From a virus, in the IMG/VR virus record IMGVR_UViG_3300044701_003269, positions 96,001 to 160,000 of that record: a DNA stretch of 64,000 nt; one strand, given 5' to 3'. Positions 18,266 through 45,952 of the stretch are shown here, one piece after another. Position 1 is the first letter of the stretch. Every line of letters starts with the position of its first letter. The translations under genes and the position numbers were made by a program. The notes under the pieces were generated by a model. It did not search any database, had not been told where the DNA came from, and was given only the letters and a program-made list of their open reading frames with translations.

Positions 18266-18760
18266 ATGAAAACAGTAGAAAGACACAAATACGATAAGAA
18301 TACCATCGTAAAGACAAGAAGATTAATTTTTAATCCTTATGAATATACTGAAAAGAATATGTGTCTTGTTGTGGGGTTGGTTCGTAGGAACTTAACCCCA
18401 GATTTGTTGAAAGGTAGAAAGAAACTGATGTATCCTGATGATGTAAAGACTAATCCCTGTTACGGTCATTGCTATCATTCCAGTCAAGCATTATTTTATC
18501 TTATGAATACAGACCAGTTAGTTCCAATGAGTGCAGAAGACTACAGAGGAGAAAAGCACTGGTGGTTACAGAATGGTGAAAAGATTTATGATGTAACTGC
18601 AGAGCAATATTATACTGTAGGGAAACTACCTCCTTATGCTTCTGGTAAGAAAACGGCATGGTATGGATGGAAAGGAAGACCACAACAGATTTCATTAGAT
18701 TTGATGGTTAGAGTACTTGGTGAGCGATTAGTGAGTGATGAGACATTCAAGGTCAATTAA
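18266..18760 (+). CDS. Hypothetical protein with possible Cys-His-Asp triad
   Basis: GHCYH...HWWL...IYDVTAEQY; stop codon lies inside repeat copy 1. Confidence 0.55.
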   Translation: MKTVERHKYDKNTIVKTRRLIFNPYEYTEKNMCLVVGLVRRNLTPDLLKGRKKLMYPDDVKTNPCYGHCYHSSQALFYLMNTDQLVPMSAEDYRGEKHWWLQNGEKIYDVTAEQYYTVGKLPPYASGKKTAWYGWKGRPQQISLDLMVRVLGERLVSDETFKVN

Positions 18761-18790
18761 AGTTACTTAGCTCTAAAGTGGATCTATAGT
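18755..18790 (+). repeat. 36-nt cassette-boundary repeat, copy 1
   Basis: AATTAAAGTTACTTAGCTCTAAAGTGGATCTATAGT, followed by GTG. Confidence 0.95.
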
Positions 18791-18832
18791 GTGAGGGACA
18801 AACGGTTCATACCACTTCCTTCACTGCCACAC

Positions 18833-18861
18833 TTGACAATGCTCTTCTGCTTTGTTATAGT
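18833..18861 (+). promoter_or_regulatory. Sigma70-type early promoter
   Basis: TTGACA-N17-TATAGT with extended -10 TG; ACTGCCACA just upstream. Confidence 0.75.
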
Positions 18862-18933
18862 AATCACGTTGGAAATTTCCAACACAATGGTTCCGCTGCC
18901 TTAAAGCGTGTTCTTTACTTACAATTGTCAATC

Positions 18934-20145
18934 ATGACCACCGTTTCATATTCCGACAACCAGGTCGGTTCTTTTGCGCAAAAAATCCTTGGAATTAAAC
19001 TTCTAGAGGATTCTAAATTTGCGAAACTTCGTAATATGGTTGAGGATAATCTTGACCAAGTTGAGGTCATTTATCCTGAAGGAGAATGTTCTCTCGATGT
19101 TGAAAATTTTGTTGAAAAACAAAAAAATCAAACTAATGAAAAACAAACCTATTCTGTTTCAGTTCCTGTAAATCTTATTGAATATGCTCAAGGACAAATT
19201 CGTTTAATTCAACCTAGTTTTTGTGAAGAAAATTTCACAAACTATAAATTTAAAGTAAATTTCCAGGAGTCAGAAACTCCGGTGTTTATCTTTAATGAAA
19301 AAACTGGAAGGTTTCAAGTTACTAAAAAACAACATACTACAATGCAAGCTTTGGCAATTGCATCTGCAGTAAATCCTAACATGACGATTAGGGGTCGTGT
19401 TGTTGCTTTTAACTCAGATGTTAATCAAGAAGTCCGCGATCTTGAAGCATCTAATATTTTTTACCGAGAGGTAAAATCTATCAATACCACAAAAGATTGG
19501 GAAAAACTTGAGCACCGCTGTCAACTTCATGAAGAAAGTGCTCTTCGTACTCGCTCCTTTTATCTGAGTATTCCTGGACTTACTTGGCAACCAGTTTCTC
19601 ACGCTTATCCATTGGTGCAAAATTCTAAATGCACCATCACAAAAGTTCGTGAAATGGAACGCCTTGTTGGATGGGCTATTAACGATGACCGTCTAGATGT
19701 TCTGAAGGAGATTGTTGAATCTCTTTCCACAGAAATCAATTGGGACAAAGAATCAGAATCTAAAGAAATTTCTTCATATCTTGTCAAAGCACTTTATAAT
19801 TTTGATAAGATTATGGTTCCAATCTATGAAGAAAAAACTGGTGAAACTTTCGATACAATTGAATTTATTCGCTGGTACTTTAAGAACAAAGTCCGTAAAC
19901 AATCCATGGTGATTGGTAGCACTAAAGATACTAAAGGTGCCTGGCTTCAAGTTCTTCAAGTGTGCAATCGTGTTAACAACTACATGACGAGTGAAGGTTT
20001 CGTTGAAGAAGCTTTCTTCACTTCAAAGAACAAATCTTTTGTTCAGTCTGTAATTAACCTCTGCAATGCAAATCGTAAAAAGGGAAACTTGACTCCAGAA
20101 AAAGAAATCAAAGGTCAAATTACCGCTCGCTGCGATAGTTTCTAA
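18934..20145 (+). CDS. Hypothetical protein (weak ParB-like N-terminal resemblance)
   Basis: About 403 aa ORF behind a strong promoter; FQVTKKQHT resembles the ParB-like xxDGQHx motif only weakly. Confidence 0.6.
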   Translation: MTTVSYSDNQVGSFAQKILGIKLLEDSKFAKLRNMVEDNLDQVEVIYPEGECSLDVENFVEKQKNQTNEKQTYSVSVPVNLIEYAQGQIRLIQPSFCEENFTNYKFKVNFQESETPVFIFNEKTGRFQVTKKQHTTMQALAIASAVNPNMTIRGRVVAFNSDVNQEVRDLEASNIFYREVKSINTTKDWEKLEHRCQLHEESALRTRSFYLSIPGLTWQPVSHAYPLVQNSKCTITKVREMERLVGWAINDDRLDVLKEIVESLSTEINWDKESESKEISSYLVKALYNFDKIMVPIYEEKTGETFDTIEFIRWYFKNKVRKQSMVIGSTKDTKGAWLQVLQVCNRVNNYMTSEGFVEEAFFTSKNKSFVQSVINLCNANRKKGNLTPEKEIKGQITARCDSF

Positions 20146-20201
20146 TCCAGTAACCACACTGTCACAAGGGGTCGCTACTGACCCCTTTTTTGTTCTATAA
20201 T
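20146..20201 (+). promoter_or_regulatory. Early promoter-like element B
   Basis: ACTGTCACA at 20158, hairpin AAGGGGTC/GACCCCTT plus T-run, TATAAT at 20196. Confidence 0.6.
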
Positions 20202-21025
20202 ACCTTCAGTTCTTAAAACACCATGCCTACTAAGGTCAAAAAACAACTCATCAATGTTGCACCCAAGAGTTCGAAAGCGAAGAACCGCTTTTCAAATCTG
20301 ATGGATAGACTTCACGCAATGGAAGTAGAGCAAGAGAATGAAACACAATTGTTTGTAGTTTCTATTAACCACCAATACTGCTTTTGGTTGAATAAGGAAA
20401 ATGACCCACATTGGAACATTATTAAATAGCTGTTAGTTGGAAAGTTATGGTTGCCTTACTTGCTACAACTGTAATCAGCTGCTCTGATGCTTTTAGGATT
20501 ATTAATCGCATTGGAAATGTAATCGGACTTTCATATCAACAAAAGATAGAAGTCGTTAAAGTAGTCAGCCAGCACGTTCCTTCCTGTCCTCTGAAAATTA
20601 TTTCTGATGAAAGACCAAAATCCAGTGATTGATGAAGAATCCAAAGACATAAAGTGGAATCGTGGGTTAGATTTGTTTATTGAATCAGTGCATAAACCTG
20701 ATAGTGAGTTGCGACAGTGTGCTCACAATCAAAAATGCTACAATGAGTTAATGGAAGTGCGTGCTACTGTGCTAGAATATCTAAAAACAATAAGAAGATG
20801 ACAGCACAATACATCTATCTCATCATCTTCTTTTGTGTTGGATATTTAATCGTTACAGATCAAAGTGTTGCAAGAGCAGTTGTATTTGTAACTCAAATCC
20901 TTAAGAATAAGTTTCTGGTGTTTAAGTGGTGGTTCATTCATAATCCCCGTCTTCCTTGGGCAAAGTATTCAATGTATAGAAACTCTATGAAGATGGCAGA
21001 GGATCTAATGAAAGAACTTGAGGGC

Positions 21026-21079
21026 AGACAATAAACTGTCACACGACCCATTGATTTTTCTGTCAATGGGTCTTATAGT
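21026..21079 (+). promoter_or_regulatory. Early promoter-like element B
   Basis: ACTGTCACA at 21035; TTGATT-N17-TATAGT with the -35 inside hairpin GACCCATTGA/TCAATGGGTC. Confidence 0.65.
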
Positions 21080-21103
21080 ATAAACATTGAAACACCTTTG
21101 AAA

Positions 21104-21529
21104 ATGTCTTATTCTGCCGAGGTCAAATTTTCTTTTGACGCCACATTCACGCCCTCTTATAGTTCTTCATTCTCTGATGATGACTTTATCCCAGAAGAAC
21201 ACTATTTGATTACTGCTCCTGCTGCAGATTTGAATGCAAAGCAGTATTTCAAACTGTTTGAGAAGTTTCTGCTGTGTGTTGGTATGAACCCTGCAAGTAT
21301 TCGTAGTGGTGCTATGTCTCTGGTGTTTAATGAATGGGTTATTGAAGAAGAACAGCGTAAGGTCTGTGAGGAATATGAACTGACAATGAATGAAGACCTC
21401 CACAATAGGTTCATTGAGTGGAAGAAGAATGAAGAAGAACTTGCAGAAAAGATTGCAAACTCTGTGATTGGTGCAATGGGAACTGTACTGTCTGAAGAAG
21501 AACTAACCAACTTGGAGGAAGGTAAGTGA
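21104..21529 (+). CDS. Hypothetical protein
   Basis: ORF directly downstream of promoter element B. Confidence 0.65.
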   Translation: MSYSAEVKFSFDATFTPSYSSSFSDDDFIPEEHYLITAPAADLNAKQYFKLFEKFLLCVGMNPASIRSGAMSLVFNEWVIEEEQRKVCEEYELTMNEDLHNRFIEWKKNEEELAEKIANSVIGAMGTVLSEEELTNLEEGK

Positions 21530-23713
21530 GTGATAGGTCGCAAGAGTTTATGAGTTTCGTATGGGACCAACGAAACAATCAAGGTGCTGATACTGAAGAA
21601 AAACTGGTCGCAGCTATTCTTTCCATTGCTGCCGAATATGTAGTCTCATACAACGCACAGGATGGAAGAGTTGTATTGGATAAAAATGACTTATTGCAAC
21701 TTGCTGAGGAACTAAAGCAATGAAACTGATTTCTTTTAAACACCGTGAAGATTACGGGCACGAATGGTACGTTCAAGTTCTTCATAACAAATACTGGGCG
21801 CTTCTTCAAGCATCCGTTTCTTATAATGATTTTCCGTCGTGGCCCTATATCCAAATAAAATCGGGGATGGGGTCGTTATTAAGTCTTATGGTCTGTGTTT
21901 ATAAACTGGGATTTGATATTGGTATCTGTGAGCACACTTGGAACTTTGAATACCTTAATGAACTTGATGGTGAGGAAGATGAAAAAACTTGAATTTCGTC
22001 CAGTCACAATCACTTATGTGAGGACTATGATGTTCACACCAACAGCAGAAACATTTGAAGACTGGGATGTAGAACCAACACAAGAGAGTGTTTATGACTG
22101 GGCAGTAGAAGAGTTTCTCACTACAATAGAAGAAGAAGCAAAGGATGGTGAGTGGAGAAACTTTACCATTATTACAGAAGACCAACCACCAGTAGAAGTT
22201 GAATGGGGTGAAGAAGATTATGACTGAACGAGCACAAAAAATCTGGGATACTTACATCAACGGATATTCTGAAGCACTAATGACCCCTGTGGAGAATTTT
22301 TCTACTTATTTGGATAATGATAGTAGAAAGATTATTGCTTCTGTTCTCCGTGAAGTCATCAACCAACTCCAACAAAGCCCTGGTGTGATTATGTGTGCTG
22401 ATGTGTTAGAATTGTGTGAGGAGATTGAAAACTTATGAACTCCAACATCAAAGACAATCTATTCCAAATTCAAGAGGTTGCTAACAAAGCCCTGGAACTT
22501 CATAAGAACTCCACAGAACGATTTGGTGGTGTAAATTATGCTAACCTACGAGTGGTGGATGTATGGGTGAAGTATAGTATTCACGAAGAGGATTTGGAGT
22601 ATGGTGTGCTGATTGAAGAGTGCTCACCAACTGCTTATGATTTACAGGATTATATGTTAGAATACTTGAAAGATAATCTACCTAATAATTTGGGGTGGAG
22701 CATTTATGTGGAGTTGGATTGGTAATGACTAAAACACAATCAGCATTAGAACGAGTTATTATTGAACTTGATAGTTGGTGTGATAATTGGACTCCCACAT
22801 CTTATAATGACCCTCGCATTAGTTTGAGACAGATTGCTGACCGTGCCCGTAATGTTTTAGAACAGGAGAAAACGAATGAAAGCTGCTAATGTTATCTTTT
22901 ACACTTTGGTGGGTGTTTGTGTAATGGGAATGATTTATAGTAATTCAAAACCAGACAAAACACCACAACATACTTCCACAGTTTCTGGTTCCTCTGGAGA
23001 ACTTAACTGTGGTACATCTTGCACCACTAAAAATGACCCTTGAAGAAATCCTAGAAGAATACGGACAGGAAGTATTAGATACTTACTACGAACTCTTCCC
23101 AGATAAAAACCTATCAAAGTTCCCTGACCGTTTCTGTGGCCCTGTTGGTGATTATGCTGACTTTGTGTTAGACTGTTATCATTCAACTGGTAGTGATGAG
23201 TTAGAAAGTATTGAAGACTTTGAGAACGGAGTCTTTCAAGAGTATTACTATTACTGCCACAATACCAACACTGGATTTGTATTTTATAATGAACGATGAC
23301 TGAACGCAACTTTACCAAAGAACTCTTATACACATATTATAATGATATGGAAGGTGGAGATGATGTTGAGAGTATTGACTATCGTTCTCTAATTCACATT
23401 ATCACTGAACTTTGTGATAGAATAGAGCAGTTGGAGAAGGACAATGAACTACGGAAATCTTATGATTGGAGAGGGGTATGACTGAAGAAGATAAGTATGC
23501 TCTCAAAGAGTTATTCCGTGGTTTTGGTGTATTTGCTGGTGCCTCTGCTGTCTTTATCGTTATTATTCTTGTGCTTTCTTACTTTGCCTCAGGTGGTGAG
23601 CCATTGAAACCATCTTTTGAAGTAGTTGATGAATACAAAGGATGTGATGTAGTAAGATATGCTCCACATCAGGCAGCAGAGTACAAGTATTTCCTCTATT
23701 GTGAGAAGAATAA

Positions 23714-24358
23714 ATGAATGAAGATATGCCTTGGGTCAATCTCACTCAAGAAGAAATAAAAGAACTTCGTAACAAAAAACACGAACTCACTGAATACGGC
23801 AAACAGAGATTGAAAGATCTTATGAATAATGACTTAACCTTTAAAACTAATGGGAAAGAAACATTCAGTATTCCTTCTCAAACTCTTGGAAATCTTACTC
23901 TTGGAACCAAAACACCTGAAACTAAACTTGAAGTAAAGGAAATGAGCCACGAAGAGATGTTAGAAGAGGCAGCACGAAGAGAAGCAGAAAATAAGGCACT
24001 TGCTGCTCTCGATGAACTCTATGAGAAGCACGGTGATGCTATGCTGAAACTTGCTGAGATTGAGAAGGAAGAATGGGAACGCAAAGAACGCAGTGACACT
24101 GTGCTGCGACGGTATAATCACTTCTACAATGAAGAATGTTCTGGTCTTCCTCACGGCACACCAATAACCCCAGAACATATGCAAGCAATGGCACTTGAAT
24201 GTATGATTGATGCTCTCCTTTGTGAGAATATGAATGTAGAGTATAATGCTATTGCTATTGATGATATTAAGGATTTGATTGCACGATTATATCAACAGAG
24301 TAATGAGTTTCTAAAGAGAGTACAAGAATTCAAAGATAGTGCTGATGGAGTAGCATAA
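23714..24358 (+). CDS. Hypothetical protein
   Basis: 214 aa ORF overlapping the upstream gene. Confidence 0.6.
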   Translation: MNEDMPWVNLTQEEIKELRNKKHELTEYGKQRLKDLMNNDLTFKTNGKETFSIPSQTLGNLTLGTKTPETKLEVKEMSHEEMLEEAARREAENKALAALDELYEKHGDAMLKLAEIEKEEWERKERSDTVLRRYNHFYNEECSGLPHGTPITPEHMQAMALECMIDALLCENMNVEYNAIAIDDIKDLIARLYQQSNEFLKRVQEFKDSADGVA

Positions 24359-24774
24359 TGGACCTCACATTTAGACAACACATTTTGTTATTATCTGCAA
24401 TCACGGTATTTTATGATGAGGTTGCAAAGACTGATAATTCTGAAATGAAACACGAAATTATGGAACTTGCTGATATTATCCAAGAGTCCGCAGAGAAGAT
24501 GAAAAATGCCTGAAATAGACATATCAAAAGTTCTTATAGAAGGTGATACTGCAACCATTATGGGTGTAGAATATAAAAGAATGGAGAACAAAATGAGTCG
24601 CTTCACTGAAAATCCTGATGAGATTGTGTTGAAGAATATTGATCTATTTCACCTGGAAAGTATGAATGAAAGAACACTATGGATTGGTGTATATGGTAAG
24701 GATGGTAAAATCTATCACTTAAACATTTCTGCAGATGGTGATAAACTAAAATACTATTGGAGTCAAGAGGCACC

Positions 24775-24871
24775 ATAAATAACAATACCTGTAAGTCGCA
24801 TTATAGGTGGAAAAGGTGCTTTCGGGCACCTTTTCTTATATAAATAGTATTGCGACTTACAGAGTAGAACT
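24775..24871 (+). promoter_or_regulatory. Structured nuclease leader: antisense hairpin, terminator and late promoter
   Basis: CTGTAAGTCGCA (24789-24800) is complementary to TGCGACTTACAG (24851-24862); terminator GAAAAGGTGCT-TTCG-GGCACCTTTTC at 24810-24835; TATAAATA at 24839-24846. Confidence 0.75.
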
Positions 24872-25489
24872 ATGACTTCACAAAGTCCAAGAATATACAC
24901 ATATAAGATTACCTTTGAAGAAGTTCCTTACTATTACTATGGAGTTCATAAGGAAAAAAAGTTTGATGAGGAGTATTGGGGAACACCAGTAACAAATAAA
25001 TGGTGTTGGGAACTTTATACACCAAAGAAACAAATATTGGAAGTGTTTGATTATACTGATAATGGATGGGTGGAAGCAAATAGAATTGAAAAAATAATAA
25101 TCAAACAATTTTATAATACAGATAGATGGTGTTTGAATGAAAGTTGTGGTGGGGATATTTCGTTAGATATAAGAAGAAAAACTGGTAAAATAATCGGTAA
25201 AATGGTAGGCAAGAAAAATGCTAAAAGAAACAAAGAACTTGGTGTTGCTATTTTTTCACTCACACCAGAACAATTGAGTGAAAATGGTAAAAAAGGAGCA
25301 GCAAAAGTAAAAGAACTTGGTCTTGGGATATTTGGAATGACTATGGAGCAAAAATTAAATGCCGCAAAAACTACAAACTCTCAAAGGTGGATGTGTGTTG
25401 AAACTGGTTTTATTACATCTTCTGGACCACTTACCAGATATCAACAAAAAAGAAATATAGACACTTCTAAACGAGTTAGAATATCATAA
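24872..25489 (+). CDS. GIY-YIG-like (Seg-type) free-standing homing endonuclease
   Basis: IYTYKIT...YYYGVH...YWGT...E..I...CLN; basic C-terminal repeats (GKKG, ELGLGIF). Confidence 0.7.
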   Translation: MTSQSPRIYTYKITFEEVPYYYYGVHKEKKFDEEYWGTPVTNKWCWELYTPKKQILEVFDYTDNGWVEANRIEKIIIKQFYNTDRWCLNESCGGDISLDIRRKTGKIIGKMVGKKNAKRNKELGVAIFSLTPEQLSENGKKGAAKVKELGLGIFGMTMEQKLNAAKTTNSQRWMCVETGFITSSGPLTRYQQKRNIDTSKRVRIS

Positions 25490-25490
25490 G

Positions 25491-25547
25491 GACACTTGAA
25501 GAACTGGCATAAAGGCACTTTACAGGTGCCCTTTTTGATGATATTAT
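25491..25547 (+). promoter_or_regulatory. Early promoter-like element B
   Basis: ACTGGCA at 25503; TTTACA-N17-TATTAT with the -35 inside hairpin GGCACT/GGTGCC. Confidence 0.55.
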
Positions 25548-26546: not shown

Positions 26547-26942
26547 ATGGGAATGTATGATACTATCCGTTCTTCATATGACTTGGGAGAACAATTTACA
26601 AATGTAGAGTTACAAACAAAGGATATTGAAGAATGTTATGGTGGCACAATGACTGACTACTGGATAGACCCAGCAGGTTATTTGTGGTGCGGTGATTATA
26701 CTAACACTGCTGCTATGGAAATCTATGAGGAAGGACACCCAAAGTATAATGCTGATAAGTCGTGGTTGAACTTTGAGTGGATACCTACAGGAATTCACGG
26801 TAAGTATAGAGTTCATCCAATTACAAAATACGTAGAGATTTACGCTGCTAAATGGGACGGTGAATGGGCTGACTGGCCCCGTTGCAGAATCCACTTCAAG
26901 TATGGTAGAGTGGTTGAGCACGAACATCTCCCCAGAAATTGA
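26547..26942 (+). CDS. Conserved phage hypothetical protein (MGMYD family)
   Basis: MGMYDTI...QTKD...Y.IDPAG.L motif. Confidence 0.65.
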   Translation: MGMYDTIRSSYDLGEQFTNVELQTKDIEECYGGTMTDYWIDPAGYLWCGDYTNTAAMEIYEEGHPKYNADKSWLNFEWIPTGIHGKYRVHPITKYVEIYAAKWDGEWADWPRCRIHFKYGRVVEHEHLPRN

Positions 26943-30240: not shown

Positions 30241-30276
30241 AATTAAAGTTACTTAGCTCCAAAGTGGACCTATAGT
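30241..30276 (+). repeat. 36-nt repeat, copy 2 (consensus)
   Basis: AATTAAAGTTACTTAGCTCCAAAGTGGACCTATAGT; TGA of ORF 30077..30241 overlaps base 1. Confidence 0.95.
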
Positions 30277-30293
30277 GTAAGCACATCATTGAA

Positions 30294-32321: not shown

Positions 32322-32819
32322 ATGTATTACACTTACGCATATCTACGAGAAGATGGAACTCCTTACTACATCGGTAAAGGAACTGGTTATAGAATAAACG
32401 ACAAAAAAAGAAAAAACATTAGTGTTCCACCAAGAAATAGAAGATTAATTCTCAAAACATTTTCTAATGAAAAAGATGCCTTCAAACACGAAATCTATAT
32501 GATAAGTGTTTATGGTCGCAAAGATAAGAAAACAGGTATTTTGAGAAACCTGACAGATGGTGGTGAAGGAACTACAAATGTTATTCGCAGTAAAGAACAT
32601 TTAAATGCCTTAAGTGAAGGTAGAAAACACATTTACACTGAAGAACATTCTAAAAAAATTAGCAAAACTCTAAAAGAAAAAAATATCAAACCACCCATAC
32701 AAACAGGTAAAAAATGGTGGTATAATGGTGAAAAAACTACATTATCAAAAGAATGTCCAGGTCTCGGTTGGAAGCTTGGAAGACCCTCTGTAAATAATTG
32801 GAGTGTTTTGAACAAATGA
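32322..32819 (+). CDS. GIY-YIG homing endonuclease-like protein with NUMOD3-like repeat
   Basis: YYTYAYLREDGTPYYIGKG...R...E...GILRNLTDGGEG; YTEEHSKKISKTLK; KWWYNG. Confidence 0.85.
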   Translation: MYYTYAYLREDGTPYYIGKGTGYRINDKKRKNISVPPRNRRLILKTFSNEKDAFKHEIYMISVYGRKDKKTGILRNLTDGGEGTTNVIRSKEHLNALSEGRKHIYTEEHSKKISKTLKEKNIKPPIQTGKKWWYNGEKTTLSKECPGLGWKLGRPSVNNWSVLNK

Positions 32820-33319: not shown

Positions 33320-33355
33320 AATTAAAGTTACTTAGCTCTAAACTGGACCTATAGT
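33320..33355 (+). repeat. 36-nt repeat, copy 3
   Basis: AATTAAAGTTACTTAGCTCTAAACTGGACCTATAGT; upstream TGA ends at 33320. Confidence 0.95.
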
Positions 33356-33902: not shown

Positions 33903-33930
33903 GGGTCCAGTTGAGAGGCTGGACCCTTTC
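33903..33930 (+). terminator. Putative terminator hairpin
   Basis: GGGTCCAGT...GCTGGACCC followed by TTT. Confidence 0.5.
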
Positions 33931-33970: not shown

Positions 33971-34654
33971 ATGAGAAGTTTTCAGCAGTTCATGTCTATT
34001 TGTGAGGAAGTTGAAGACAAGTCAAAGAGACTTGGATTTGCTGCTACAATTAAGACTGCACAAGCAGGTGGTAGGGTTCGCCCAGAACGTAAGAAAACAC
34101 CTGCCGAAATACGCAGAATGAAAGCTGTGGGTGGTGGTAAGATGGAACCTGTTGGTCCATACAAACCCCGCAAAGATATTGGAACTCAAAAGACTGCTGC
34201 TCAACGTCAGCAACAACCAGAGAAAGAGCGTGGAAGTAAGGAAGTCGCACAATCTTATGCTGAAAAAGTAAAAGCAGAACGTAGAGCAGCAGCACAAGCA
34301 AGAGCAGCAGCTAAGAAAGGTGGTTCTGCAACAACCACAGCAAAAGCAAAACCCAAAGACTTATCAAAACAAGCATCTCAACTTCTTTCAACAAAGAAAG
34401 CAGAAGAGAAACCAGCAACCCGCACAAATAGAAAGTGGAGAACTGAAACTGGTGCTGGTATGACAAAGAGCGAAAGAGCTAGTGCAAGAGGTAAAGAGAA
34501 AACTGCAAAAGCACAAGAAACTAAGAAATCTTCTAGTGAAATTCTTGCCAAGATGCGTAAAGAGTATGAAGAAGGTGGTGGTAAGTGGAGCAATGCTGTT
34601 GCAGTTAGAATGAGAGCAAAGGCAAAAGCAGCAGCACAAGCATCAGGAAGCTGA
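33971..34654 (+). CDS. Lys/Ala-rich basic protein, possible internal head protein
   Basis: N-terminus MRSFQQFMSICEE; CTAAATA late-like promoter at 33937-33943. Confidence 0.55.
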   Translation: MRSFQQFMSICEEVEDKSKRLGFAATIKTAQAGGRVRPERKKTPAEIRRMKAVGGGKMEPVGPYKPRKDIGTQKTAAQRQQQPEKERGSKEVAQSYAEKVKAERRAAAQARAAAKKGGSATTTAKAKPKDLSKQASQLLSTKKAEEKPATRTNRKWRTETGAGMTKSERASARGKEKTAKAQETKKSSSEILAKMRKEYEEGGGKWSNAVAVRMRAKAKAAAQASGS

Positions 34655-34659
34655 GGGGC

Positions 34660-34695
34660 AATTAAAGTTACTTAGCTCCAAAGTGGACCTATAGT
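34660..34695 (+). repeat. 36-nt repeat, copy 4
   Basis: Consensus copy; ATG at 34696. Confidence 0.95.
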
Positions 34696-34938: not shown

Positions 34939-34949
34939 TTAAATAAAAA

Positions 34950-35715: not shown

Positions 35716-35751
35716 AATTAAAGTTACTTAGCTCCAAAGTGACCCTATAGT
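35716..35751 (+). repeat. 36-nt repeat, copy 5
   Basis: ...CTCCAAAGTGACCCTATAGT; upstream TAA at repeat nt 4-6; ATG at 35752. Confidence 0.95.
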
Positions 35752-37642: not shown

Positions 37643-37809
37643 AAGAAGGATTTATTGTTGGCAAAGGTAACTATGCAGCCGTGCCCTATGGTAATCAACT
37701 GATGATCATTCACAACGGAGAGCAACTCAAAGTGTGTAGGACCGAAGCATCAGCACGAAAATTTATTGACGACCACAAAAAGGGTAAATCACAGGCAAAG
37801 CTTCCTGTC

Positions 37810-37845
37810 GATTAAAGTTACTTAGCTCCAAAGCGGACCTATTGC
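37810..37845 (+). repeat. 36-nt repeat, copy 6
   Basis: GATTAAAGTTACTTAGCTCCAAAGCGGACCTATTGC; TAA of ORF 37639..37815 inside; ATG at 37846. Confidence 0.9.
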
Positions 37846-37862
37846 ATGATCACCCAATTTCA

Positions 37863-38468
37863 ATGACTTTCCCACAACAACTCATTGATGCCGTTAATTA
37901 TCTTTCTGGCATTGTAACAATCAGTGAGAATCACGAGGATGGTCGTGTGAATAGTATCACAGATGAAGATACTGTAATTGATCTCCTCATTGAAAAATAT
38001 GGTGAAGAAAATGTACAAAAACCAGCAGCACGTTGCTGGTGGGATGTAAAATTATTTGGTTATCCTCTCAACATTAAGTCTTCCGACTTTGCTAAGGGTG
38101 CATCAGACAACTTTTCATCTAAAGCAGCAATTCTTTATGCTTTGACTGATCTTCCCGAGGATAAAGTGATTGTTTCCTCCTGGGGTAAGTTTCAGGATGC
38201 CCTGAAGAATCATGGCGGAAAAGAAAATGACCGCGATTATTATATCATTGCAGTTGATAAGGGGACTCGCGAAGTTTATTTGCAGAGTCTTAAATCTCTG
38301 AACAAGCTAACTCCTAACGGCAACAATCTTCCATTCCAAATCAAGTGGAAAGATAACATTCAACCTGTTCAACGTGACTATGGACAATCGTATGAGTTTC
38401 TGATAGAATGTTACAAGGAATCAGTACGCCGTAAGATTAACGCACACGATGGTTTTGAACAACTTTGA
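37863..38468 (+). CDS. Putative type II restriction endonuclease
   Basis: E...WWDVKL...LNIKSS (PD-(D/E)xK-like), NGNNLPFQIKW; overlaps a DNA methyltransferase gene. Confidence 0.6.
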   Translation: MTFPQQLIDAVNYLSGIVTISENHEDGRVNSITDEDTVIDLLIEKYGEENVQKPAARCWWDVKLFGYPLNIKSSDFAKGASDNFSSKAAILYALTDLPEDKVIVSSWGKFQDALKNHGGKENDRDYYIIAVDKGTREVYLQSLKSLNKLTPNGNNLPFQIKWKDNIQPVQRDYGQSYEFLIECYKESVRRKINAHDGFEQL

Positions 38469-39219
38469 TCTGCAATTTGGGGATTGTTTGGAGTTGATGC
38501 AATCAATTCCAGACGAATCTATTGATTTTATTTGTTGCGATCCTCCTTATGGAACTACTAGCATTAAGTGGGATTCTGTTCTCGATTTCAACGAGATGTG
38601 GGAACAGTATGGTAGAATCATTAAACCGAAAGGTATAATTTGTCTGTTTGGTTCTCAACCTTTCTCTGCACAACTTATCTGCTCAAAGATTAACTGGTTC
38701 AGGTACGAATTAGTATGGAACAAAAACAAATGTGGGTCGCCTGGACTTGCCAAATACAGACCAATGAAGACCCACGAGAATATAATGATCTTCTCCAAAG
38801 AATCAGGTGGAACTTACAACCCACAGATGGAAAAAGGAGAACCATACTCAAGAACAAGTAAAAATCCTGAGGGTTACGTTGGGAGAAAAAATGATCACGG
38901 TTATGGTATGAAACCTCGCAAATCATTCTCCAATGATGGTACTAGGTATCCAAAGTCAGTTCTCAACATTTCTAGAGATTTCAGTGCTCAGCAACAAGTT
39001 CATCCAACACAAAAACCTGTTCCTCTGATGGAATGGTTGATCAAGACTTATTCTAACGAAGGTGAAACTGTACTTGACAATTGTATGGGATCTGGATCAA
39101 CTGGTGTAGCAGCTGTTAAACTTGGTCGCAAGTTTATTGGAATGGATAGTGATCCTGGATACTTTGAAATTGCTCAAGATAGAATCACTCAGATTCCCGT
39201 GGATGTTACCTCATTCTAG
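38449..39219 (+). CDS. N6-adenine/N4-cytosine DNA methyltransferase (beta class)
   Basis: GDCLE, DPPY, HPTQKP, VLDNCMGSGSTG in beta-class order. Confidence 0.92.
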   Translation: MVLNNFDLQFGDCLELMQSIPDESIDFICCDPPYGTTSIKWDSVLDFNEMWEQYGRIIKPKGIICLFGSQPFSAQLICSKINWFRYELVWNKNKCGSPGLAKYRPMKTHENIMIFSKESGGTYNPQMEKGEPYSRTSKNPEGYVGRKNDHGYGMKPRKSFSNDGTRYPKSVLNISRDFSAQQQVHPTQKPVPLMEWLIKTYSNEGETVLDNCMGSGSTGVAAVKLGRKFIGMDSDPGYFEIAQDRITQIPVDVTSF

Positions 39220-39232
39220 CAAACTTTTATCA

Positions 39233-39268
39233 AATTAAAGTTACTTAGCTCCAAAGCGGACCTGTAGT
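39233..39268 (+). repeat. 36-nt repeat, copy 7
   Basis: ...CTCCAAAGCGGACCTGTAGT; ATG at 39269. Confidence 0.95.
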
Positions 39269-40192
39269 ATGAAGACCAAACCGATGCAAAACAAGCACCT
39301 AGAGCACCCAGAAGATGAGATTTTGACTGGCAATCTGTCAGTGCTTGATTGGTTCTCTGAGGTAGAATCTACTATCAGTGTGAAGATGGATGGTGCCCCA
39401 GCTATTGTGTGGGGAACTAATCCTCAGAATGGTAAGTTCTTTGTCTGCACCAAAGCAGCATTTAACAAGAAAAAGATTCGCCTTTGCTATAACGAAGATG
39501 ACATCTTCACCCATTTCGGTGGACAACCAAGGGTAACACAGATTCTCATTTTCTGCCTAGATTTCCTGCCTCGCACTCAACAAGTGATGCAAGGTGATTG
39601 GATTGGTTTTGGTGGTGGGTTGGATACATTTACTCCCAATACGATTACTTACAAGTTCCCTGCGCCAGTTCGCCAGGATATTGTTATCGCTCCACATACA
39701 ATCTACAGCGGTTCCGATGACATTCGTGAGATGACTGCTGCTCCTCTGACTAGCAAACTCATCAGCACTAAGCATTGCTTGTTCGTGCAGCCTGAAGTCG
39801 AACTTAACCCTTTCCGTGAGGATTTGGAGGATGTGTGTAAGTTTGCCAAGCAAATGTCTACTCTGTGTGAGTTTGTGAGCGATAAGAAAGCATCACAAAT
39901 CAAAAAAGAGATTAACGCTTGCATCCGTGAGGAAAAGGTCGTGGATGAAAATGAAATTGCAGAAAAATGTGATTGTGACAAGTATCTCATCTCTTTGTGG
40001 AAACTGGTGAAGTCTATCAAGGATGATTTGTTCCTTTTCATTCACGAACTGGATGAGATTGAGTGCTCTATTGGTGATGAGGTAAGTTTCCACGAAGGTT
40101 ATGTCATTCGCAACAAGTTTGGTACTTACAAAGTCGTTGACCGTGAAACATTCTCTCACGCAAACTTTACCATCGCCAAGAATTGGGGGTGA
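39269..40192 (+). CDS. Conserved phage protein with KxDG motif (ligase/nucleotidyltransferase-like)
   Basis: NKHLEHPED, SVKMDGAPAIVWG, QGD, HEGYV, KVVDR..FS..NF resemble ligase motifs I, III, IV and V. Confidence 0.6.
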   Translation: MKTKPMQNKHLEHPEDEILTGNLSVLDWFSEVESTISVKMDGAPAIVWGTNPQNGKFFVCTKAAFNKKKIRLCYNEDDIFTHFGGQPRVTQILIFCLDFLPRTQQVMQGDWIGFGGGLDTFTPNTITYKFPAPVRQDIVIAPHTIYSGSDDIREMTAAPLTSKLISTKHCLFVQPEVELNPFREDLEDVCKFAKQMSTLCEFVSDKKASQIKKEINACIREEKVVDENEIAEKCDCDKYLISLWKLVKSIKDDLFLFIHELDEIECSIGDEVSFHEGYVIRNKFGTYKVVDRETFSHANFTIAKNWG

Positions 40193-40226
40193 TTAAAGTT
40201 GCTTAGCTTCAAAGTGGACTTATAGT
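40191..40226 (+). repeat. 36-nt repeat, copy 8
   Basis: GATTAAAGTTGCTTAGCTTCAAAGTGGACTTATAGT; ATG at 40227. Confidence 0.9.
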
Positions 40227-40469
40227 ATGACAACCACTGAAATGACCGACACTATTAACGACCTTACAGTAACACGTTCCCTGCGCCTGCTGCGTGATGG
40301 TTTCAAAAGTGATTTTGCGACCTTTGCTTACAATGACGAAAGGATGACAGAACTTATAGCACAACTTGCAAGTGAGTTTGTAGAATCAAACATTCCTGTG
40401 ATTGATGAAGACAACCAGATGGAACTTTCTATGATGCTGTTGGAATCCCTGGAGATTATTGTACGATGA
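40227..40469 (+). CDS. Hypothetical protein
   Basis: ATG abuts the repeat; second ATG at +15. Confidence 0.65.
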   Translation: MTTTEMTDTINDLTVTRSLRLLRDGFKSDFATFAYNDERMTELIAQLASEFVESNIPVIDEDNQMELSMMLLESLEIIVR

Positions 40470-40973
40470 AACTCTTTCAATACGATAAAAAAGTTTGGGA
40501 AGGTGGTGAAACTTCACGCACTTGGCAGTTTGGTATCTTCAAAAATCATTCATTTCTGTGGGTGAATTATGAGAACCCCAGTTGTCAAGTTTATCCTTCT
40601 GGTGGTCTTCATATCCTACTCTCATTTTTTACCAGTTCTTTATTTGGAGTAGATTTTCAGATTGGTAAATATGATTTGAGTTTTAACTTTTTTACTGAAT
40701 ACTTTGAGGGGTGGAATGAATGACTTACTCTAATCTCTCAAAGATTCGTCCTAAACTTCGTACTGAAGGTCGCATAACTGGAAATTGGGGAAAACCAAAG
40801 GTTTCTGCGGGTTCTACACTCAACGACATCGGTGGTGATGGTAACATAGGAGCAACACAAGACGAATACTTAAATCGTCTGTATTATGCTTTTGATAACA
40901 CTACCGACCCCAAACTTCAACGCTTCATTTACTCTGAAATCCGTAAAATTCACATTCAAAGAGGTACTTGGTA

Positions 40974-41459
40974 ATGGCAACTTGGCGAGCAGATGTATTC
41001 GTAAACTCCCGCGTCGGACGTATCACGACTGAGGTTCAAGCTTCGACATTCTCTGGTGCAAAAGAGCAAATCTATGCAAAGCACGGTGACGTTCAACAAA
41101 TTGCTAATCTGAGAGAGGTTAGAAATAGTGGCAGTTCTTCAGGTTCTGATTTTGGTAGTATTGGTGGAACTGTAGGACTCATCGGATTGGTTGCAGCTGC
41201 ATGGGCATTTGTATCATTCACTCCCTGGATTTTGATGGGTTTAGGTGGTGCTTTCGGAACTTGGGTTGGTGAGAAAGTAACAGGACAAAGCATCGAAGAA
41301 TATAACGAACGTGATGATGATTTGGGACACTCAAAGGCAGCAATCGTTCTTGCACTTGCACTTATTCTAGGTGGACTTGGTTTCGTCAAAGGTGATGAAA
41401 TCAAAAAAGGATTTGATGTCCCTGATGCACCTGCAGAAGTGAAAAGTACGCAGAATTAA
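40974..41459 (+). CDS. Hypothetical membrane protein
   Basis: Hydrophobic Gly-zipper segments; stop codon inside repeat copy 9. Confidence 0.65.
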   Translation: MATWRADVFVNSRVGRITTEVQASTFSGAKEQIYAKHGDVQQIANLREVRNSGSSSGSDFGSIGGTVGLIGLVAAAWAFVSFTPWILMGLGGAFGTWVGEKVTGQSIEEYNERDDDLGHSKAAIVLALALILGGLGFVKGDEIKKGFDVPDAPAEVKSTQN

Positions 41460-41489
41460 AGTTACTTAGCTCCAAAGTGGACCTATAGT
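41454..41489 (+). repeat. 36-nt repeat, copy 9
   Basis: Consensus copy; ATG at 41490. Confidence 0.95.
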
Positions 41490-41714
41490 ATGAACATCAC
41501 TGAAATGCCCGAAGTCTACCACTATCACACCAACTGGAAAGAAGGTAAAGTGAATCAAATGTGGATTCAGCAAGTGAATGACAAGTTCGTTGCTATTGCA
41601 TACAACCCCGAAAAGAATGTTTCGATGCCTATGTCGAAACCCCGCACTTCCTACGATGAAACTCTACAATGGGTTCGCAAATGGTGCGGCACTTTCTGTA
41701 TCCTTCCTGCCTGA
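41490..41714 (+). CDS. Hypothetical protein
   Basis: ATG abuts the repeat. Confidence 0.65.
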   Translation: MNITEMPEVYHYHTNWKEGKVNQMWIQQVNDKFVAIAYNPEKNVSMPMSKPRTSYDETLQWVRKWCGTFCILPA

Positions 41715-41873
41715 TTGATGATGACTAACATAACCGAACTTGAGGATTTTTTGCGCGAAAAGTGTATGGAAAGTCCTGCACTTCTTGCTGTAGTGATTGG
41801 TGAATACATTAAGAGTTTGAATAAATCTCAAATCACTCAGCTTGAGGACTTCCTTATCGACAACTTCGGTGAC

Positions 41874-41909
41874 AATTAAAGTTACTTAGCTCTAAAGTGG
41901 ACCTATAGT
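41874..41909 (+). repeat. 36-nt repeat, copy 10
   Basis: ...CTCTAAAGTGGACCTATAGT; TAA of ORF 41718..41879 inside; ATG at 41910. Confidence 0.95.
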
Positions 41910-42092
41910 ATGACAAACACCAATCCCTACGTTCAAAACCTCATCGAAATGGGTTACGATGAGAAAGACTGCCAAATGGTTGCTGATGCTGGGCGTCAGA
42001 AAGTTACCTACCCTCGTACCATTCACGGTCGCACTTTTGCTACTGAAACTGAGTACAAAGAAGCACTCGCAGACTTCATCAACGGTCTGTGA
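41910..42092 (+). CDS. Hypothetical protein filling one repeat interval exactly
   Basis: ATG abuts copy 10 and TGA overlaps copy 11. Confidence 0.7.
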   Translation: MTNTNPYVQNLIEMGYDEKDCQMVADAGRQKVTYPRTIHGRTFATETEYKEALADFINGL

Positions 42093-42127
42093 ATTAAAGT
42101 TACTTAGCTCCAAAGCGGACCTATAGT
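42092..42127 (+). repeat. 36-nt repeat, copy 11
   Basis: ...CTCCAAAGCGGACCTATAGT; ATG at 42128 starts an ORF of about 55 aa. Confidence 0.95.
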
Positions 42128-42594
42128 ATGACTAACACTTTCACCGTCCGTTTCGAGTCTCCTTCACTCAACTCTCCCGAGTATATTGGACCTTTCTACT
42201 CTGAAGATGATGCACAAGATTATGCTGATGACCGCAACAGTTCGTTAGCATTATCGGGTATTCCTTCCTCTGTTGCTTGTTACTCTGTTGTTTGATTGAT
42301 TATGACACAAACCACTCTCACTTTTGAGGAGATTGATGCTCTTCTGGTACTCATTGAACATCACACAAAAGAAAGTTGGCATGAAATGGTTGAGATTACT
42401 GGTTACGATGTAGGCATCTGCAGAGATCTTTATGACAAACTCACTGAAATGCAGGATGAAGTCTGATGAGAATTGCTTTTCTGATTGCAACTTTAGCACT
42501 GGGACTTCGCCTTGGTTTGAGTGCTCATGCTACAGTGAATGAGTATCAAGAACAGCAAGCAGATCGCTTCTGTCAGATAGATCCAAGCTACTGC

Positions 42595-42610
42595 AATTAA
42601 AGTTACTTAG
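42595..42610 (+). repeat. Half copy of the 36-nt repeat (nt 1-16)
   Basis: AATTAAAGTTACTTAG followed by GACTCACATTATG; TAA of ORF 42466..42600 inside. Confidence 0.85.
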
Positions 42611-43073
42611 GACTCACATTATGACTAACAATGCTTTCATTCTCAACGACACTGCAAAGAATGATGCTGCAGTGCAACTTGCAATGGCAAATTATGTCAA
42701 ACAGTTGGAGCGTGAAGAAGCACGTAGGCAAGCAATTCTCTCTGGGAAGTATATTCCTTGCCCCGAAACTGTTTGGAACATCTCTGACCGCGATTGATGG
42801 CAAGGAGACTAACACTTAGGAATCCATCGAAAGTGAAAACGATTGCACTTGTCTTCATCGTTGCAATGATACTCTCACCAGGAGTTCGCAACACAACATC
42901 CAACACACTACACACATTAGCAGACATTATTTCGACCAATGATTGAGACTGAGTTCTTTCTTCTGAATGAGGAACAATTCAATGAGTATAGCACACTTGC
43001 AGATGAAGCTGGTGTGAATATTGACTATTACTTGTCAGAGTTTTGTGATGTGATTGGACCTGATGTTATCGTC

Positions 43074-43109
43074 AATTAAAGTTACTTAGCTCCAAAGCGG
43101 ACCTATAGT
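43074..43109 (+). repeat. 36-nt repeat, copy 12
   Basis: GCGG variant; TAA of ORF 42939..43079 inside; ATG at 43110. Confidence 0.95.
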
Positions 43110-43397
43110 ATGAACATCACTGACCTCTTCGACTCCATCAAACTCAGCGAGCAGATTGCTCTCGAACACTATCAACAACTCAACGGTGTTGTTGATTATC
43201 GGTTGCCCGGAGTTTGTAACCACTACTTCGCAAAGTATGATTTGCAAGGTACACGAGATGGCGAAATCTGCCTGACCTGTAAAGTTGCCAAGACTGTAAA
43301 AGGTCAGTTGCGTTATACCTTCCAAATCAACGGTAAGCGTATCGCAGAAAAGCAAATTGCTGCTGAGTTTAATGCTCTCGGTGCTTTCACTCACTGA
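43110..43397 (+). CDS. Hypothetical protein
   Basis: Its only Met is the ATG abutting the repeat. Confidence 0.7.
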   Translation: MNITDLFDSIKLSEQIALEHYQQLNGVVDYRLPGVCNHYFAKYDLQGTRDGEICLTCKVAKTVKGQLRYTFQINGKRIAEKQIAAEFNALGAFTH

Positions 43398-43587
43398 CAT
43401 CAAATGAACAATCAAACTAACATTGAAGCAACAGTATTTGCAGCAGTTGTAGGCATTATCATCATCGCACTTGCCTTTGCTATTTTACACTTTCGCAATC
43501 CACAAATCGAAGCAAAGTGTATTGCAAAAGGAGGACAAGTTCTTGTTACTCCAGGTCGCATCAGTTCTTGTCTTTATCCGAGCAGGT

Positions 43588-43623
43588 AATTAAAGTTACT
43601 TAGCTCCAAAGCGGACCTATAGT
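43588..43623 (+). repeat. 36-nt repeat, copy 13
   Basis: GCGG variant, followed by ATC; next ATG at 43648. Confidence 0.95.
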
Positions 43624-43647
43624 ATCACCACACATAACCAAAACCAA

Positions 43648-43959
43648 ATGCGAGTTATCGAACGCCAAATGAATAAAGCAATCAGCACTGAGACTGATTG
43701 GAAGAAAGACAACACACAAGTTGTCAACATCGAAGGTGTCAGCTTTGTCTATCTGTATAACAATCTGATTGCAATGGTAGGTGATACTTGGTTGGAATTG
43801 TTTGATGGTGGATATAAGTCTGCCACGACTAAATCGCGTCTCAATGCTATTCTTGCAGAGCACGGGAATAGCGAGTATGTCTATCAGAAAAACTTTGAAT
43901 GGTTTGTGTCTACTAAGTATGGAGATGTTCCTTTCTACAATACCATCAAGTTGAACTGA
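43648..43959 (+). CDS. Conserved phage hypothetical protein
   Basis: MRVIERQM..AI...NT.V...YLYNNLIA...GGYKSATTKSRLNAIL...QKNFEWF. Confidence 0.7.
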   Translation: MRVIERQMNKAISTETDWKKDNTQVVNIEGVSFVYLYNNLIAMVGDTWLELFDGGYKSATTKSRLNAILAEHGNSEYVYQKNFEWFVSTKYGDVPFYNTIKLN

Positions 43960-43994
43960 ATTAAAGTTACTTAGCTCCAAAGCGGACCTATAGT
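43959..43994 (+). repeat. 36-nt repeat, copy 14
   Basis: GCGG variant; ATG at 43995 starts an acidic ORF of about 56 aa. Confidence 0.95.
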
Positions 43995-44367
43995 ATGACT
44001 GACACTCAAATGACTACCAAGCAAAAGGAAACCTTCCGCGATCTCTTCACTGAAGACCAGTGGGATATGATCTACAACTTCGTCGGAAATGCACTCGATG
44101 ATGATGATTTTGATGCAGAAGATGTGTATAGCATCCGCAACAAGATTCACGCACTGTTTAACTGAAACTCACTGAAATGACAATGACATTTACTGAAGCA
44201 CTTATCGCATCTGGTTATTACTTCCAACCTGAATGTGGTGCATTTCATAAAGCAGATGCCAATGGAAATGAGCACTCTTATGTAGAGCAAGATGAGAACA
44301 CTTGGTCCTATGAAAAGTATAACCAAGACGGTCAACTTGTGTCTTCTAAAGTATTCTCACTGGACTG

Positions 44368-44403
44368 AATTAAAGTTACTTAGCTCCAAAGTGGACCTAT
44401 AGT
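44368..44403 (+). repeat. 36-nt repeat, copy 15
   Basis: Consensus copy; ATG at 44404 starts a 59 aa ORF ending at 44583. Confidence 0.95.
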
Positions 44404-45094
44404 ATGAGCAACCAACTTCAGCAAATCTGCCTAGACAAAGCACAACAAATTGCCAATGAAATCAACGGTGATTTGTATTATGTCCCACAAGAAGACATCG
44501 ACCAACTGTTATCTCAACTCACCGAAGATAATGTAGATGATGTTGCTGAAGAACTTGCCGAATTAGCACACTGGTTTAACTAAATGACCGAACAACAAAA
44601 GGATACAATGCTCGCAAACATCCTAGAGCAAGTCCAATCTCAAATCGAACATTTAGTCGATCAAGATTTAATCGAAGAGTCTTATGCTCTGTATAAAGAA
44701 TGGGAAGAACATTTCGATCCTAATGTTAAACAACTAGAAATCATTACTGTTATCGATCTCACTACTATTCAATGAAACCTTTTCTAAACATCACGTTTGC
44801 TGTTGAACTTCTAGTCCTCACTTGTCTTGCTACAGTAGCAGTCAATGCACAATCAAACAATAACGAAAACGTCAACAAGTTCTGTGCCTATGTTGTAGGA
44901 ATACCATATGCATCAGATAACTTTACTGATGAAGAATGGGAGAGGTTCAAGTATTGTAGAGACACACTCAATCAGTAACACATAGTGAGGAAGGAGTTTG
45001 CCTCATCTACAAAAGAAAGTGACTCTGTAAAGTGATAGATAATTCCTATTCATTTGGTGGCGCTTGCGCTCCCCCTTCGGGAGTTGGATTATAG

Positions 45095-45123
45095 AGAGAG
45101 GGAGTGGTTACCCTCTCTTTTTT
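45095..45123 (+). terminator. Rho-independent terminator
   Basis: AGAGAGGG-N8-CCCTCTCT followed by a T-run. Confidence 0.7.
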
Positions 45124-45449
45124 ATTGCCAAAAAACGTTATTTTAATGCTTAAATGTTATGAAATCAATAAAAAAGCCTTTTTTAATTATAGCTAAGCGG
45201 TTTATTTGTTCTCAATAAGATGTTAGTTATTGAGAATCAATAAGGGTTCTAATTGAGAATTAGTGACCTTTTATACCCTATTAAACCCTTCTAGACCTGA
45301 CACTTATACCCTTTTAAATGTGCTGAGACCTTGTGATCTTTGCCTGCAAGCTATCACACACGCGCACAAATGTCAAGCACCCCCGCGTTATCAAATCCCC
45401 ACACATACCTCATAAAATCTCCACGCCCCGAATAAATACCCCCAAGGAC

Positions 45450-45478
45450 TTGACAACAATTCCCAGGCATCTTACAAT
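45450..45478 (+). promoter_or_regulatory. Sigma70-type promoter
   Basis: TTGACA-N17-TACAAT. Confidence 0.7.
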
Positions 45479-45507
45479 ACCTACAGTAACACTCAAGGAG
45501 CACACTT

Positions 45508-45681
45508 ATGTCGGTTGCGTATCAGAAAGCTCAGAAGCAGCGTTATAGAGTCACCCTAGAACTTGAGGTCTTCGAAGACTTCGACCCGCACCAACTTGAC
45601 TGGGAGAAAGTATTTAAGTTGGAACCAGCTGAGAAGGTAGAAGCATACGTAGAAGACCTAAGTAGACCTGATAGGTGGTAA
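45508..45681 (+). CDS. Small hypothetical protein (57 aa), not in the ORF track
   Basis: SD AAGGAG, own promoter, terminator-like hairpin at 45709-45733; MSVAYQKAQKQRYRVTLELEV... Confidence 0.7.
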   Translation: MSVAYQKAQKQRYRVTLELEVFEDFDPHQLDWEKVFKLEPAEKVEAYVEDLSRPDRW

Positions 45682-45739
45682 CTTATAAAACCTCATATAC
45701 ACTCCTTGAAAGACTCCTAGTGGGGTCTTTTTTAATGCC

Positions 45740-45768
45740 TTGACATACCTTACTGTTTCTGATACAAT
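45740..45768 (+). promoter_or_regulatory. Sigma70-type promoter
   Basis: TTGACA-N17-TACAAT with extended TG. Confidence 0.7.
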
Positions 45769-45916
45769 TACCTTTGTGGAGGTTAATAAGGGAACTATGA
45801 GTAAGCTTAAGCCACCAGTCTTATTATACACCAGAGAACACCGTTAGGTAATCACGAACGTAGTGAGTGATTGAGTAGAGAACTGTAAGGACCTAAGTGA
45901 TACGTAGAGATGCACC

Positions 45917-45952
45917 AAATAAAGTTGCTTAGCTGCAAAGTGGACTTATAGT
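45917..45952 (+). repeat. 36-nt repeat, copy 16 (divergent, last)
   Basis: AAATAAAGTTGCTTAGCTGCAAAGTGGACTTATAGT; ATG at 45953. Confidence 0.85.

Follow-up and report, generated by a model that had tools for sequence, protein, structure and literature searches.

The question raised by this locus is why one short repeat recurs between the genes of a phage, with the end of one gene at its left edge and often the start of the next at its right edge. The stretch of DNA analysed here (the window) comprises 64,000 nucleotides, positions 96,001 to 160,000 of the IMG/VR virus record IMGVR_UViG_3300044701_003269, and belongs to a T4-like cyanomyovirus with nucleotide matches to Synechococcus and Prochlorococcus myoviruses. 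All copies of the 36-nt repeat lie in a block of small, mostly unknown genes (18.7-46 kb) between structural modules, and this region is flanked by tail-fibre and baseplate genes. The block is syntenic with SynMITS9220M01 and S-SM2 (a helicase gene, a DUF6267 gene and small open reading frames (ORFs), then gp25/gp6/gp7) and among its named cargo are the helicase, DUF6267, homing-endonuclease-like genes and an endonuclease together with an N6/N4 methylase. The first-pass annotation had likened the arrangement to integron and CRISPR arrays, with a duplicated promoter of the PeSL type (promoter-early stem-loop) as its fallback. We propose, with a probability of roughly 0.6, that many T4-like cyanophages (Kyanoviridae) express their small non-structural genes from one family of promoters, and that the repeat is the form of it found in this lineage.

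With the copy at window positions 41454-41489 as the reference, a mismatch scan recovered 13 copies at three mismatches or fewer, against none in 100 shuffles, and three further full copies at four mismatches (37810, 40191 and 45917). All 16 full copies are on the + strand, between 18755 and 45952, and scanning the whole record (174,186 bp), as the first-pass annotation had advised, yielded no further ones. Its count, 16 full copies plus a half copy with every one on the + strand, is thereby confirmed, and so are the positions, which are given in the list below. It had also reported that the upstream stop codon overlaps bases 1-6 of the repeat in 14 of 17 copies, and the ORF table agrees (13 of the 16 full copies and the half copy, including upstream ORFs that end on repeat base 1 or 2), with copies 34660, 39233 and 45917 as the exceptions. 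The consensus indeed carries one stop in each frame, TAA at bases 4-6, TAG at 14-16 and TAG at 33-35. The left edge of the repeat is sharp and the right edge fades beyond base 36, past which T at +2 and A at +4 never vary, with conservation also at +7 and from +9 to +11.

The exact repeat was found in 11 IMG/VR stretches and had no match among 50,697 phage records, and thus in no cultured phage. The syntenic regions of SynMITS9220M01 and S-SM2 contain arrays of their own, with 9-11 copies. These units share their 3' part with the window lineage (AAAGYG, four bases, TATAGT, then RTRA) and differ in the 5' part, which is GTTACTCACC in SynMITS9220M01 and a six-G run followed by TCGC in S-SM2. An IMG/VR scan for the core detected it in at least 120 viral contigs, many of them multi-copy, and it occurs in S-B05-type phages too; all core copies were co-oriented with the genes. 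Grouping of 329 instances gave more than 25 types of 5' box, each uniform within its contigs and all attached to the same core. The core was absent from Syn9, for which three different patterns were tried, and P-SSM2 has a different repeat (a palindrome and a -10) in its place. The repeat is one lineage's version of a widespread cyanomyovirus element that combines a lineage-private 5' box with a shared core.

The anatomy of this element resembles that of a promoter. Its left edge is A/T-rich and usually holds the stop codon of the upstream gene. A private box of ~12-16 nt occupies the -35 position, and in the window lineage this box, GTTACTTAGCTC, resembles a T4-type early -35. The shared core follows, consisting of AAAGYG, four bases, TATAGT (as the -10) and the conserved start region RTRAGCA. 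TATAGT agrees with the -10 consensus at five of six positions and TATAAT is among the variants found there. GTTACT is located 17 bp upstream of TATAGT and matches the T4/PST hexamer TTTACW at five of six positions, and the two hexamers together match 10 of the 12 positions of TTTACW-N17-TAYWAT, the consensus of the T4/PST PeSL promoters (PMC4122927). Other -10 candidates (the AAAGT segment and a left-edge hexamer) lose key bases in many copies and were rejected, and readings of the element as a Shine-Dalgarno site, NtcA site, Pho box or late promoter did not fit when inspected by eye.

What follows the core was analysed in 317 distinct contexts. In 139 of them no ATG abuts TATAGT; these mostly carry GTAA or ATAA, and the gene starts 15-119 nt away, with a peak at 17-18. 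Such varied distances argue for the behaviour of a promoter and not of a ribosome site. Coding and non-coding contexts alike conserve C at +6 and A at +7 (89% and 65% of these two classes have the A), a spacing that is usual for start sites behind a -10. Together with the co-orientation and the variable leader length, this C/A at +6/+7 fits a promoter that starts ~7 nt after its -10. The position of copy 1, at the border of late structural genes and the small-gene block, was also counted for a promoter.

It seems quite unlikely that the element instead works at the RNA level in polycistronic early transcripts, as stop/restart punctuation or as a processing or repressor site (e.g. of a RegA homologue), with the promoters located elsewhere. 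Such a role would account for the placement of upstream stops, since in most of 322 upstream contexts the preceding ORF ends within the first few bases of the element and 27 ORFs run through it to the TAG inside TATAGT. It would also suit the in-frame ATG at the right edge, the lack of any ATG within the element, the canonical promoters and terminators at the block borders and the presence of regA in cyanomyoviruses (PMC2984593). However, the element contains no Shine-Dalgarno-like sequence, and the fold energy of the repeat equals that of controls (-4.3 vs -4.0 kcal/mol; mean of the 50 nt upstream -6.2 vs -6.6). No conserved hairpin or inverted repeat was found in the repeat and pairings are not kept between lineages; a hairpin of box and core (e.g. 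GGGACGC with GCGTCCC) was rejected, as it exists in some lineages only and loses its register and pairs elsewhere. The distant start codons of the 139 contexts and the TATAAT variants speak against this role as well, as does copy 1, which follows late genes where early RNA would not arrive. The stop codons fit the tight packing of a regulatory unit, for which a separate stop function is not needed.

The individual copies and the cargo of one slot are as follows.

18755-18790, + strand: repeat copy 1, two mismatches, followed by GTG; border of the tail/baseplate genes and the small-gene block.
30241-30276, + strand: repeat copy 2, exact, followed by GTA; gene ATG 17 nt downstream.
33320-33355, + strand: repeat copy 3, two mismatches, followed by GTA; conserved ATG 18 nt downstream.
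34660-34695, + strand: repeat copy 4, exact; ATG abuts, second in-frame ATG at +15.
35716-35751, + strand: repeat copy 5, preceding the helicase gene, whose conserved protein begins at the second ATG (+15).
37810-37845, + strand: repeat copy 6, four mismatches, with TATTGC at the -10 position; left border of the multi-allelic slot.
37863-39219, + strand: cargo of this slot, an endonuclease gene (phrog_3978) and an N6/N4 DNA methylase gene.
39233-39268, + strand: repeat copy 7, right border of the slot; precedes the DUF6267 gene, whose native start is the second ATG (39284).
40191-40226, + strand: repeat copy 8, four mismatches; left end of the block absent in the relative L009.
41454-41489, + strand: repeat copy 9, exact; right end of the block absent in L009.
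41874-41909, + strand: repeat copy 10, followed by a 60-aa gene with no plausible start other than the abutting ATG.
42092-42127, + strand: repeat copy 11, C25 variant.
42595-42610, + strand: decayed half copy, bases 1-16 kept and core lost; the relative L004 has a full copy there.
43074-43109, + strand: repeat copy 12, C25 variant; ATG abuts.
43588-43623, + strand: repeat copy 13, C25 variant, followed by ATC; gene ATG 24 nt downstream.
43959-43994, + strand: repeat copy 14, C25 variant; ATG abuts, second ATG at +15.
44368-44403, + strand: repeat copy 15, exact; ATG abuts; copy and neighbours replaced by other genes in L004.
45917-45952, + strand: repeat copy 16, four mismatches; ATG abuts.

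As had been stated before, ATG is the next triplet after 12 of the 16 full copies. Ten of these ATGs are in frame with the downstream ORF and the remaining two start mini-ORFs whose TGA overlaps the real ATG: six codons after copy 6, at the endonuclease ATG (37863), and 16 codons after copy 16, at the ATG at 46000. Family-wide, ATG directly follows TATAGT in 178 of the 317 contexts (56%); 168 of these (94%) are in frame and open for at least 35 codons, compared with 1 and 6 in the other two frames. The earlier wording, that the element stops every upstream frame and supplies a start to the downstream gene, therefore holds as a description. In the abutting triplet, A at the first base is associated with G at the third (Fisher p 2e-44). 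A second in-frame ATG is present at +15 in 68 of the 178 contexts, and in 55 there is none within 60 nt. The helicase and DUF6267 proteins of the window lineage begin at the second ATG and the five codons that precede it vary freely. In the L004 ortholog of the gene behind copy 11, a 15-nt segment that the window lacks separates TATAGT from the ATG. Comparison of orthologues shows that either ATG can be the native start.

For a promoter the following course of events can be envisaged. Host RNA polymerase would initiate at the conserved A seven bases past TATAGT, possibly helped by a further factor that reads the private box, and the resulting leaders would measure ~9-12 nt up to an ATG at +15 to +18. 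No terminators were predicted adjoining the copies or between them, and read-through is presumed because of this; RNA from upstream copies would then cover each gene as well. Translation of such read-through RNA would begin at the built-in ATG, which lies ~30 nt behind the preceding stop; this would explain why it is kept in frame.

Several observations weigh against this explanation. Firstly, the -35 hexamer matches TTGACA at only three of six positions, the repeat was not listed by a generic promoter scan and the -35 position is G-rich in other lineages, as in the six-G run of S-SM2; because of the poor TTGACA match and this G-richness, the 5' box is not a normal -35. Secondly, canonical TTGACA-type promoters with Shine-Dalgarno sites are also present in the window and the repeat may therefore be a separate promoter class. 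Thirdly, if TATAGT is the -10, any normal start site would fall downstream of the abutting ATG, and a start at +7 would therefore make genes that have only the abutting ATG untranslatable from their own copy. The gene at 41910 has no start other than this ATG, and the conserved N-terminus of DUF6267 begins at the abutting ATG in S-SM2 and SynMITS9220M01. Fourthly, GTG is found at the abutting position only 3 times, against 178 times for ATG. This avoidance of GTG and the in-frame ATG show that ribosomes see the abutting triplet and that its function as a start codon is under selection. Lastly, the read-through by which these points could be reconciled is the weakest step of the explanation.

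The same observations could imply a non-canonical or factor-dependent promoter whose RNA has its 5' end at the built-in ATG or immediately before it, so that the mRNA would be leaderless or nearly so, with a phage protein that reads the private box instead of sigma region 4, as MotA and AsiA do in T4. The abutting, mostly in-frame ATG, the near absence of GTG, the 55 genes that have no other nearby in-frame start and the exact start of DUF6267 in two cultured phages would all follow from it, and so would a private box that is unlike a -35 in many lineages next to a spacer region that is conserved between lineages, which is unusual for sigma-70. Also codons 2-4 are C/A-rich, and C/A-rich early codons are reported to aid the translation of leaderless mRNA in E. 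coli. Nevertheless, no -10-like hexamer is present at the right distance upstream of the ATG and the conserved C/A at +6/+7 fits a downstream start. The record had no match to a T7-type RNA polymerase (PF00940), a weak test as the control genomes were unmatched too and the record is ~83% complete. The only candidate reader that was examined, ORF 33971-34654, does not correspond one-to-one with the box type and was rejected, since one box type occurs with two of its tails and one tail with at least six box types. We consider leaderless starts unlikely. A broader proposal, which we find doubtful, is that the family forms a distinct, undescribed promoter class of T4-like cyanophages, with a private box read by a co-evolving phage factor and the built-in ATG as a leaderless or near-leaderless 5' end. 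If true, each unit would be a self-contained stop-promoter-start plug, at which any gene could be inserted by recombination.

The first-pass annotation further suggested that cassettes are gained and lost at the repeats. Relatives were compared by protein-level maps and nucleotide breakpoints, as it had proposed. In the slot 37810-39233, homology with relatives ends inside both repeats and three or four alleles exist: the endonuclease and methylase in the window, an unknown gene with a distant methylase in L002, L003 and L008, and a single 81-aa gene in L005, L009 and L010. L009 lacks 40227-41453 and retains one hybrid repeat there. Three insertions have a repeat on each side, namely a methylase cassette at 34660 in L009, a 903-nt cassette at 35716 in L008 and a 1,266-nt methylase cassette at 41454 in L004 and L010. 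The first gene after copy 40191 has four or five alternatives among the relatives. Furthermore, the C25 variant, a base change at repeat position 25, occurs in 6 of the 16 window copies and in none of 57 copies in relatives, and therefore conversion between copies is argued. Altogether, both ends fall in repeats at 5 event sites and one end does at ~6.

These numbers have to be set against at least 6 clear indels and several replacements at repeat-free junctions, and the 5 events with both ends in repeats exceed the ~2.2 expected (15 of 48 junctions bear a repeat) at p ~0.07 only. What stands of the suggestion is therefore the multi-allelic slot, the three insertions and the one deletion, whereas the enrichment is weak and indels at repeat-free junctions are about as numerous. 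The repeats are seams for cassette change, and other seams also exist. The methylase cassettes at the three slots have no shared nucleotide similarity, and the idea of one cassette moving among slots was rejected on this ground. The promoter explanation can accommodate the seams: homologous recombination between copies that are so alike and share one orientation would convert them and sometimes insert, delete or replace whole cassettes, as proposed for PeSLs.

Cassette differences bounded exactly by repeats, and several cargoes in one slot, are also what a site-specific recombination site of an integron-like or other cassette system would produce. We regard such a site as very improbable. The first-pass annotation saw no integrase in the window, and profile searches of the 174-kb record bear this out: no tyrosine recombinase (PF00589) was matched, whereas 14 of 14 control genomes were, and no serine recombinase or resolvase was found with search controls that were positive, which in a record that is ~83% complete is not proof. 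Homologues of Syn9 gp43, gp41 and UvsX were not found in the record either, and a missing replication/recombination module fits this completeness estimate. Neither an inverted repeat nor an attC-like fold is present in the repeat, many indels are found at junctions that carry no repeat, and the methylase cassettes in different slots are not one cassette. The analogy with integrons and CRISPR arrays was thus not upheld, as recombinase and hairpin are lacking and the core heads genes at varied distances, as a promoter would.

The closest known systems are the PeSL and PmSL (promoter-middle stem-loop) cassettes of the T4-type phages RB49/phi1, T4/PST and KVP40/nt-1 (Arbiol 2010, PMC2839356; Comeau 2014, PMC4122927). 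Like the element described here, they consist of numerous promoter-type units, near-identical and all in one orientation, within a hyperplastic block of small genes, the ends of indels and replacements between close relatives lie in the units, and no dedicated recombinase is involved. Decayed half units are also known ('1/2 PeSLs', PMC4122927), and the half copy at 42595 resembles them. In contrast to PeSLs, the element has neither a terminator-like stem-loop upstream nor a Shine-Dalgarno site; at only ~45 nt it occupies the entire space between stop and ATG, with the start codon directly after the -10, and its 5' half is lineage-private while spacer and -10 are common across lineages. The duplicated PeSL-type promoter, which the first-pass annotation held in reserve, is therefore the closest reading, apart from these unusual extras. 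That promoter repeats act as recombination seams is a concept already known from PeSLs.

Generic sigma-70-like early motifs only have been reported for S-PM2 and Syn9 (PMC2984593), and dense PeSL-like arrays were not found in S-PM2 (Puxty et al., PMC4503421). Those early promoters, like the element, are promoter-like motifs upstream of early-type genes, although the core is absent from Syn9. The MotA-dependent middle promoters of T4 are similar in that a phage-specific box replaces the -35 and a normal -10 is kept; this likeness is inferred, and cyanomyoviruses lack motA and asiA as well as alt and mod (PMC2984593). Integron attC sites also bound gene cassettes in one orientation, but the element lacks an integrase and an attC fold, and its cassettes bring along a promoter-like unit of their own, unlike the promoterless cassettes of integrons. 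No published description of the core or of a private box was found in a literature search that lay apart from the start-site mapping of Syn9 reportedly done by Doron et al. in 2016.

T4-like cyanophages are among the most abundant viruses of sea and lakes, and how their early transcription starts without the Alt, Mod, MotA and AsiA of T4 is an unsettled question, for which the element, with its puzzling built-in start codon and its lineage-private half, offers a signal that is concrete and found in many phages. Two cultured phages that carry it, S-SM2 (grown on Synechococcus WH8017) and SynMITS9220M01 (grown on MIT S9220), make it open to testing. The element also marks seams at which near relatives differ in accessory cargo, including endonuclease-methylase pairs and homing-endonuclease-like genes, and helps to read the microdiversity of cyanophage populations.

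Other features of the window and its relatives are given here in their own right. ORF 33971-34654 encodes a very basic, low-complexity protein of 227 aa that starts with MRSFQQFMSICE, which we take to resemble the capsid targeting sequence of T4 internal proteins. Upstream of it are a GC-rich hairpin (33903-33926) and a late-promoter-like CTAAATA, and CTAAATA is conserved before its homologues in ~40 contigs. The N-terminal part of the protein is conserved and the C-terminal tail is swappable (one version in the window, L001, L005 and L010, another in L008 and L009). It is probably a packaged internal protein. Homing-endonuclease-like genes with weak matches to phrog_314 are located at 24872-25489 and 32322-32819; the latter is absent from L005 and L010, and a copy with 49% identity occupies a different repeat-flanked slot of L008.

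In the equivalent region of P-SSM2 (L015, 3173-9478) a 24-nt palindrome, TGTGCCA, ten bases and TGGCACA, occurs in five copies, with a conserved CTATAATAG box ~50 nt downstream in two cases. It is a different regulatory repeat, more PeSL-like than the element. The annotated start of the P-SSM2 DUF6267 gene PSSM2_075 (L015, 6001-6094) seems ~26 codons too far downstream, as the conserved N-terminus MKNTHIEHPED is encoded from approximately L015 position 6016.

A stand-alone unit at 18833-20187 consists of a promoter, a 403-aa ORF and a strong terminator (20166-20187). Its promoter (18833-18861) is a canonical TTGACA-17-TATAGT, preceded by TG and located 43 nt downstream of copy 1, and the ORF (18934-20145) had no Pfam or PHROG match and no homologue in the compared loci. 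Near the other end of the block, 44980-45800 contains ~500 nt that are gene-free and a strong terminator (45093-45120), followed by two canonical TTGACA-17-TACAAT promoters, each with a Shine-Dalgarno-like site. The first of these belongs to the gene of an acidic, 57-aa protein (45508-45681, phrog_12516) with conserved counterparts in ~40 related contigs. Lastly, G+C drops from ~40% to 29-33% over 48000-64000 and stays low to the end of the record, in an assembly that may be chimeric, and the ORF that starts at 51553 runs past the end of the window and probably encodes a giant gp7-like baseplate protein.

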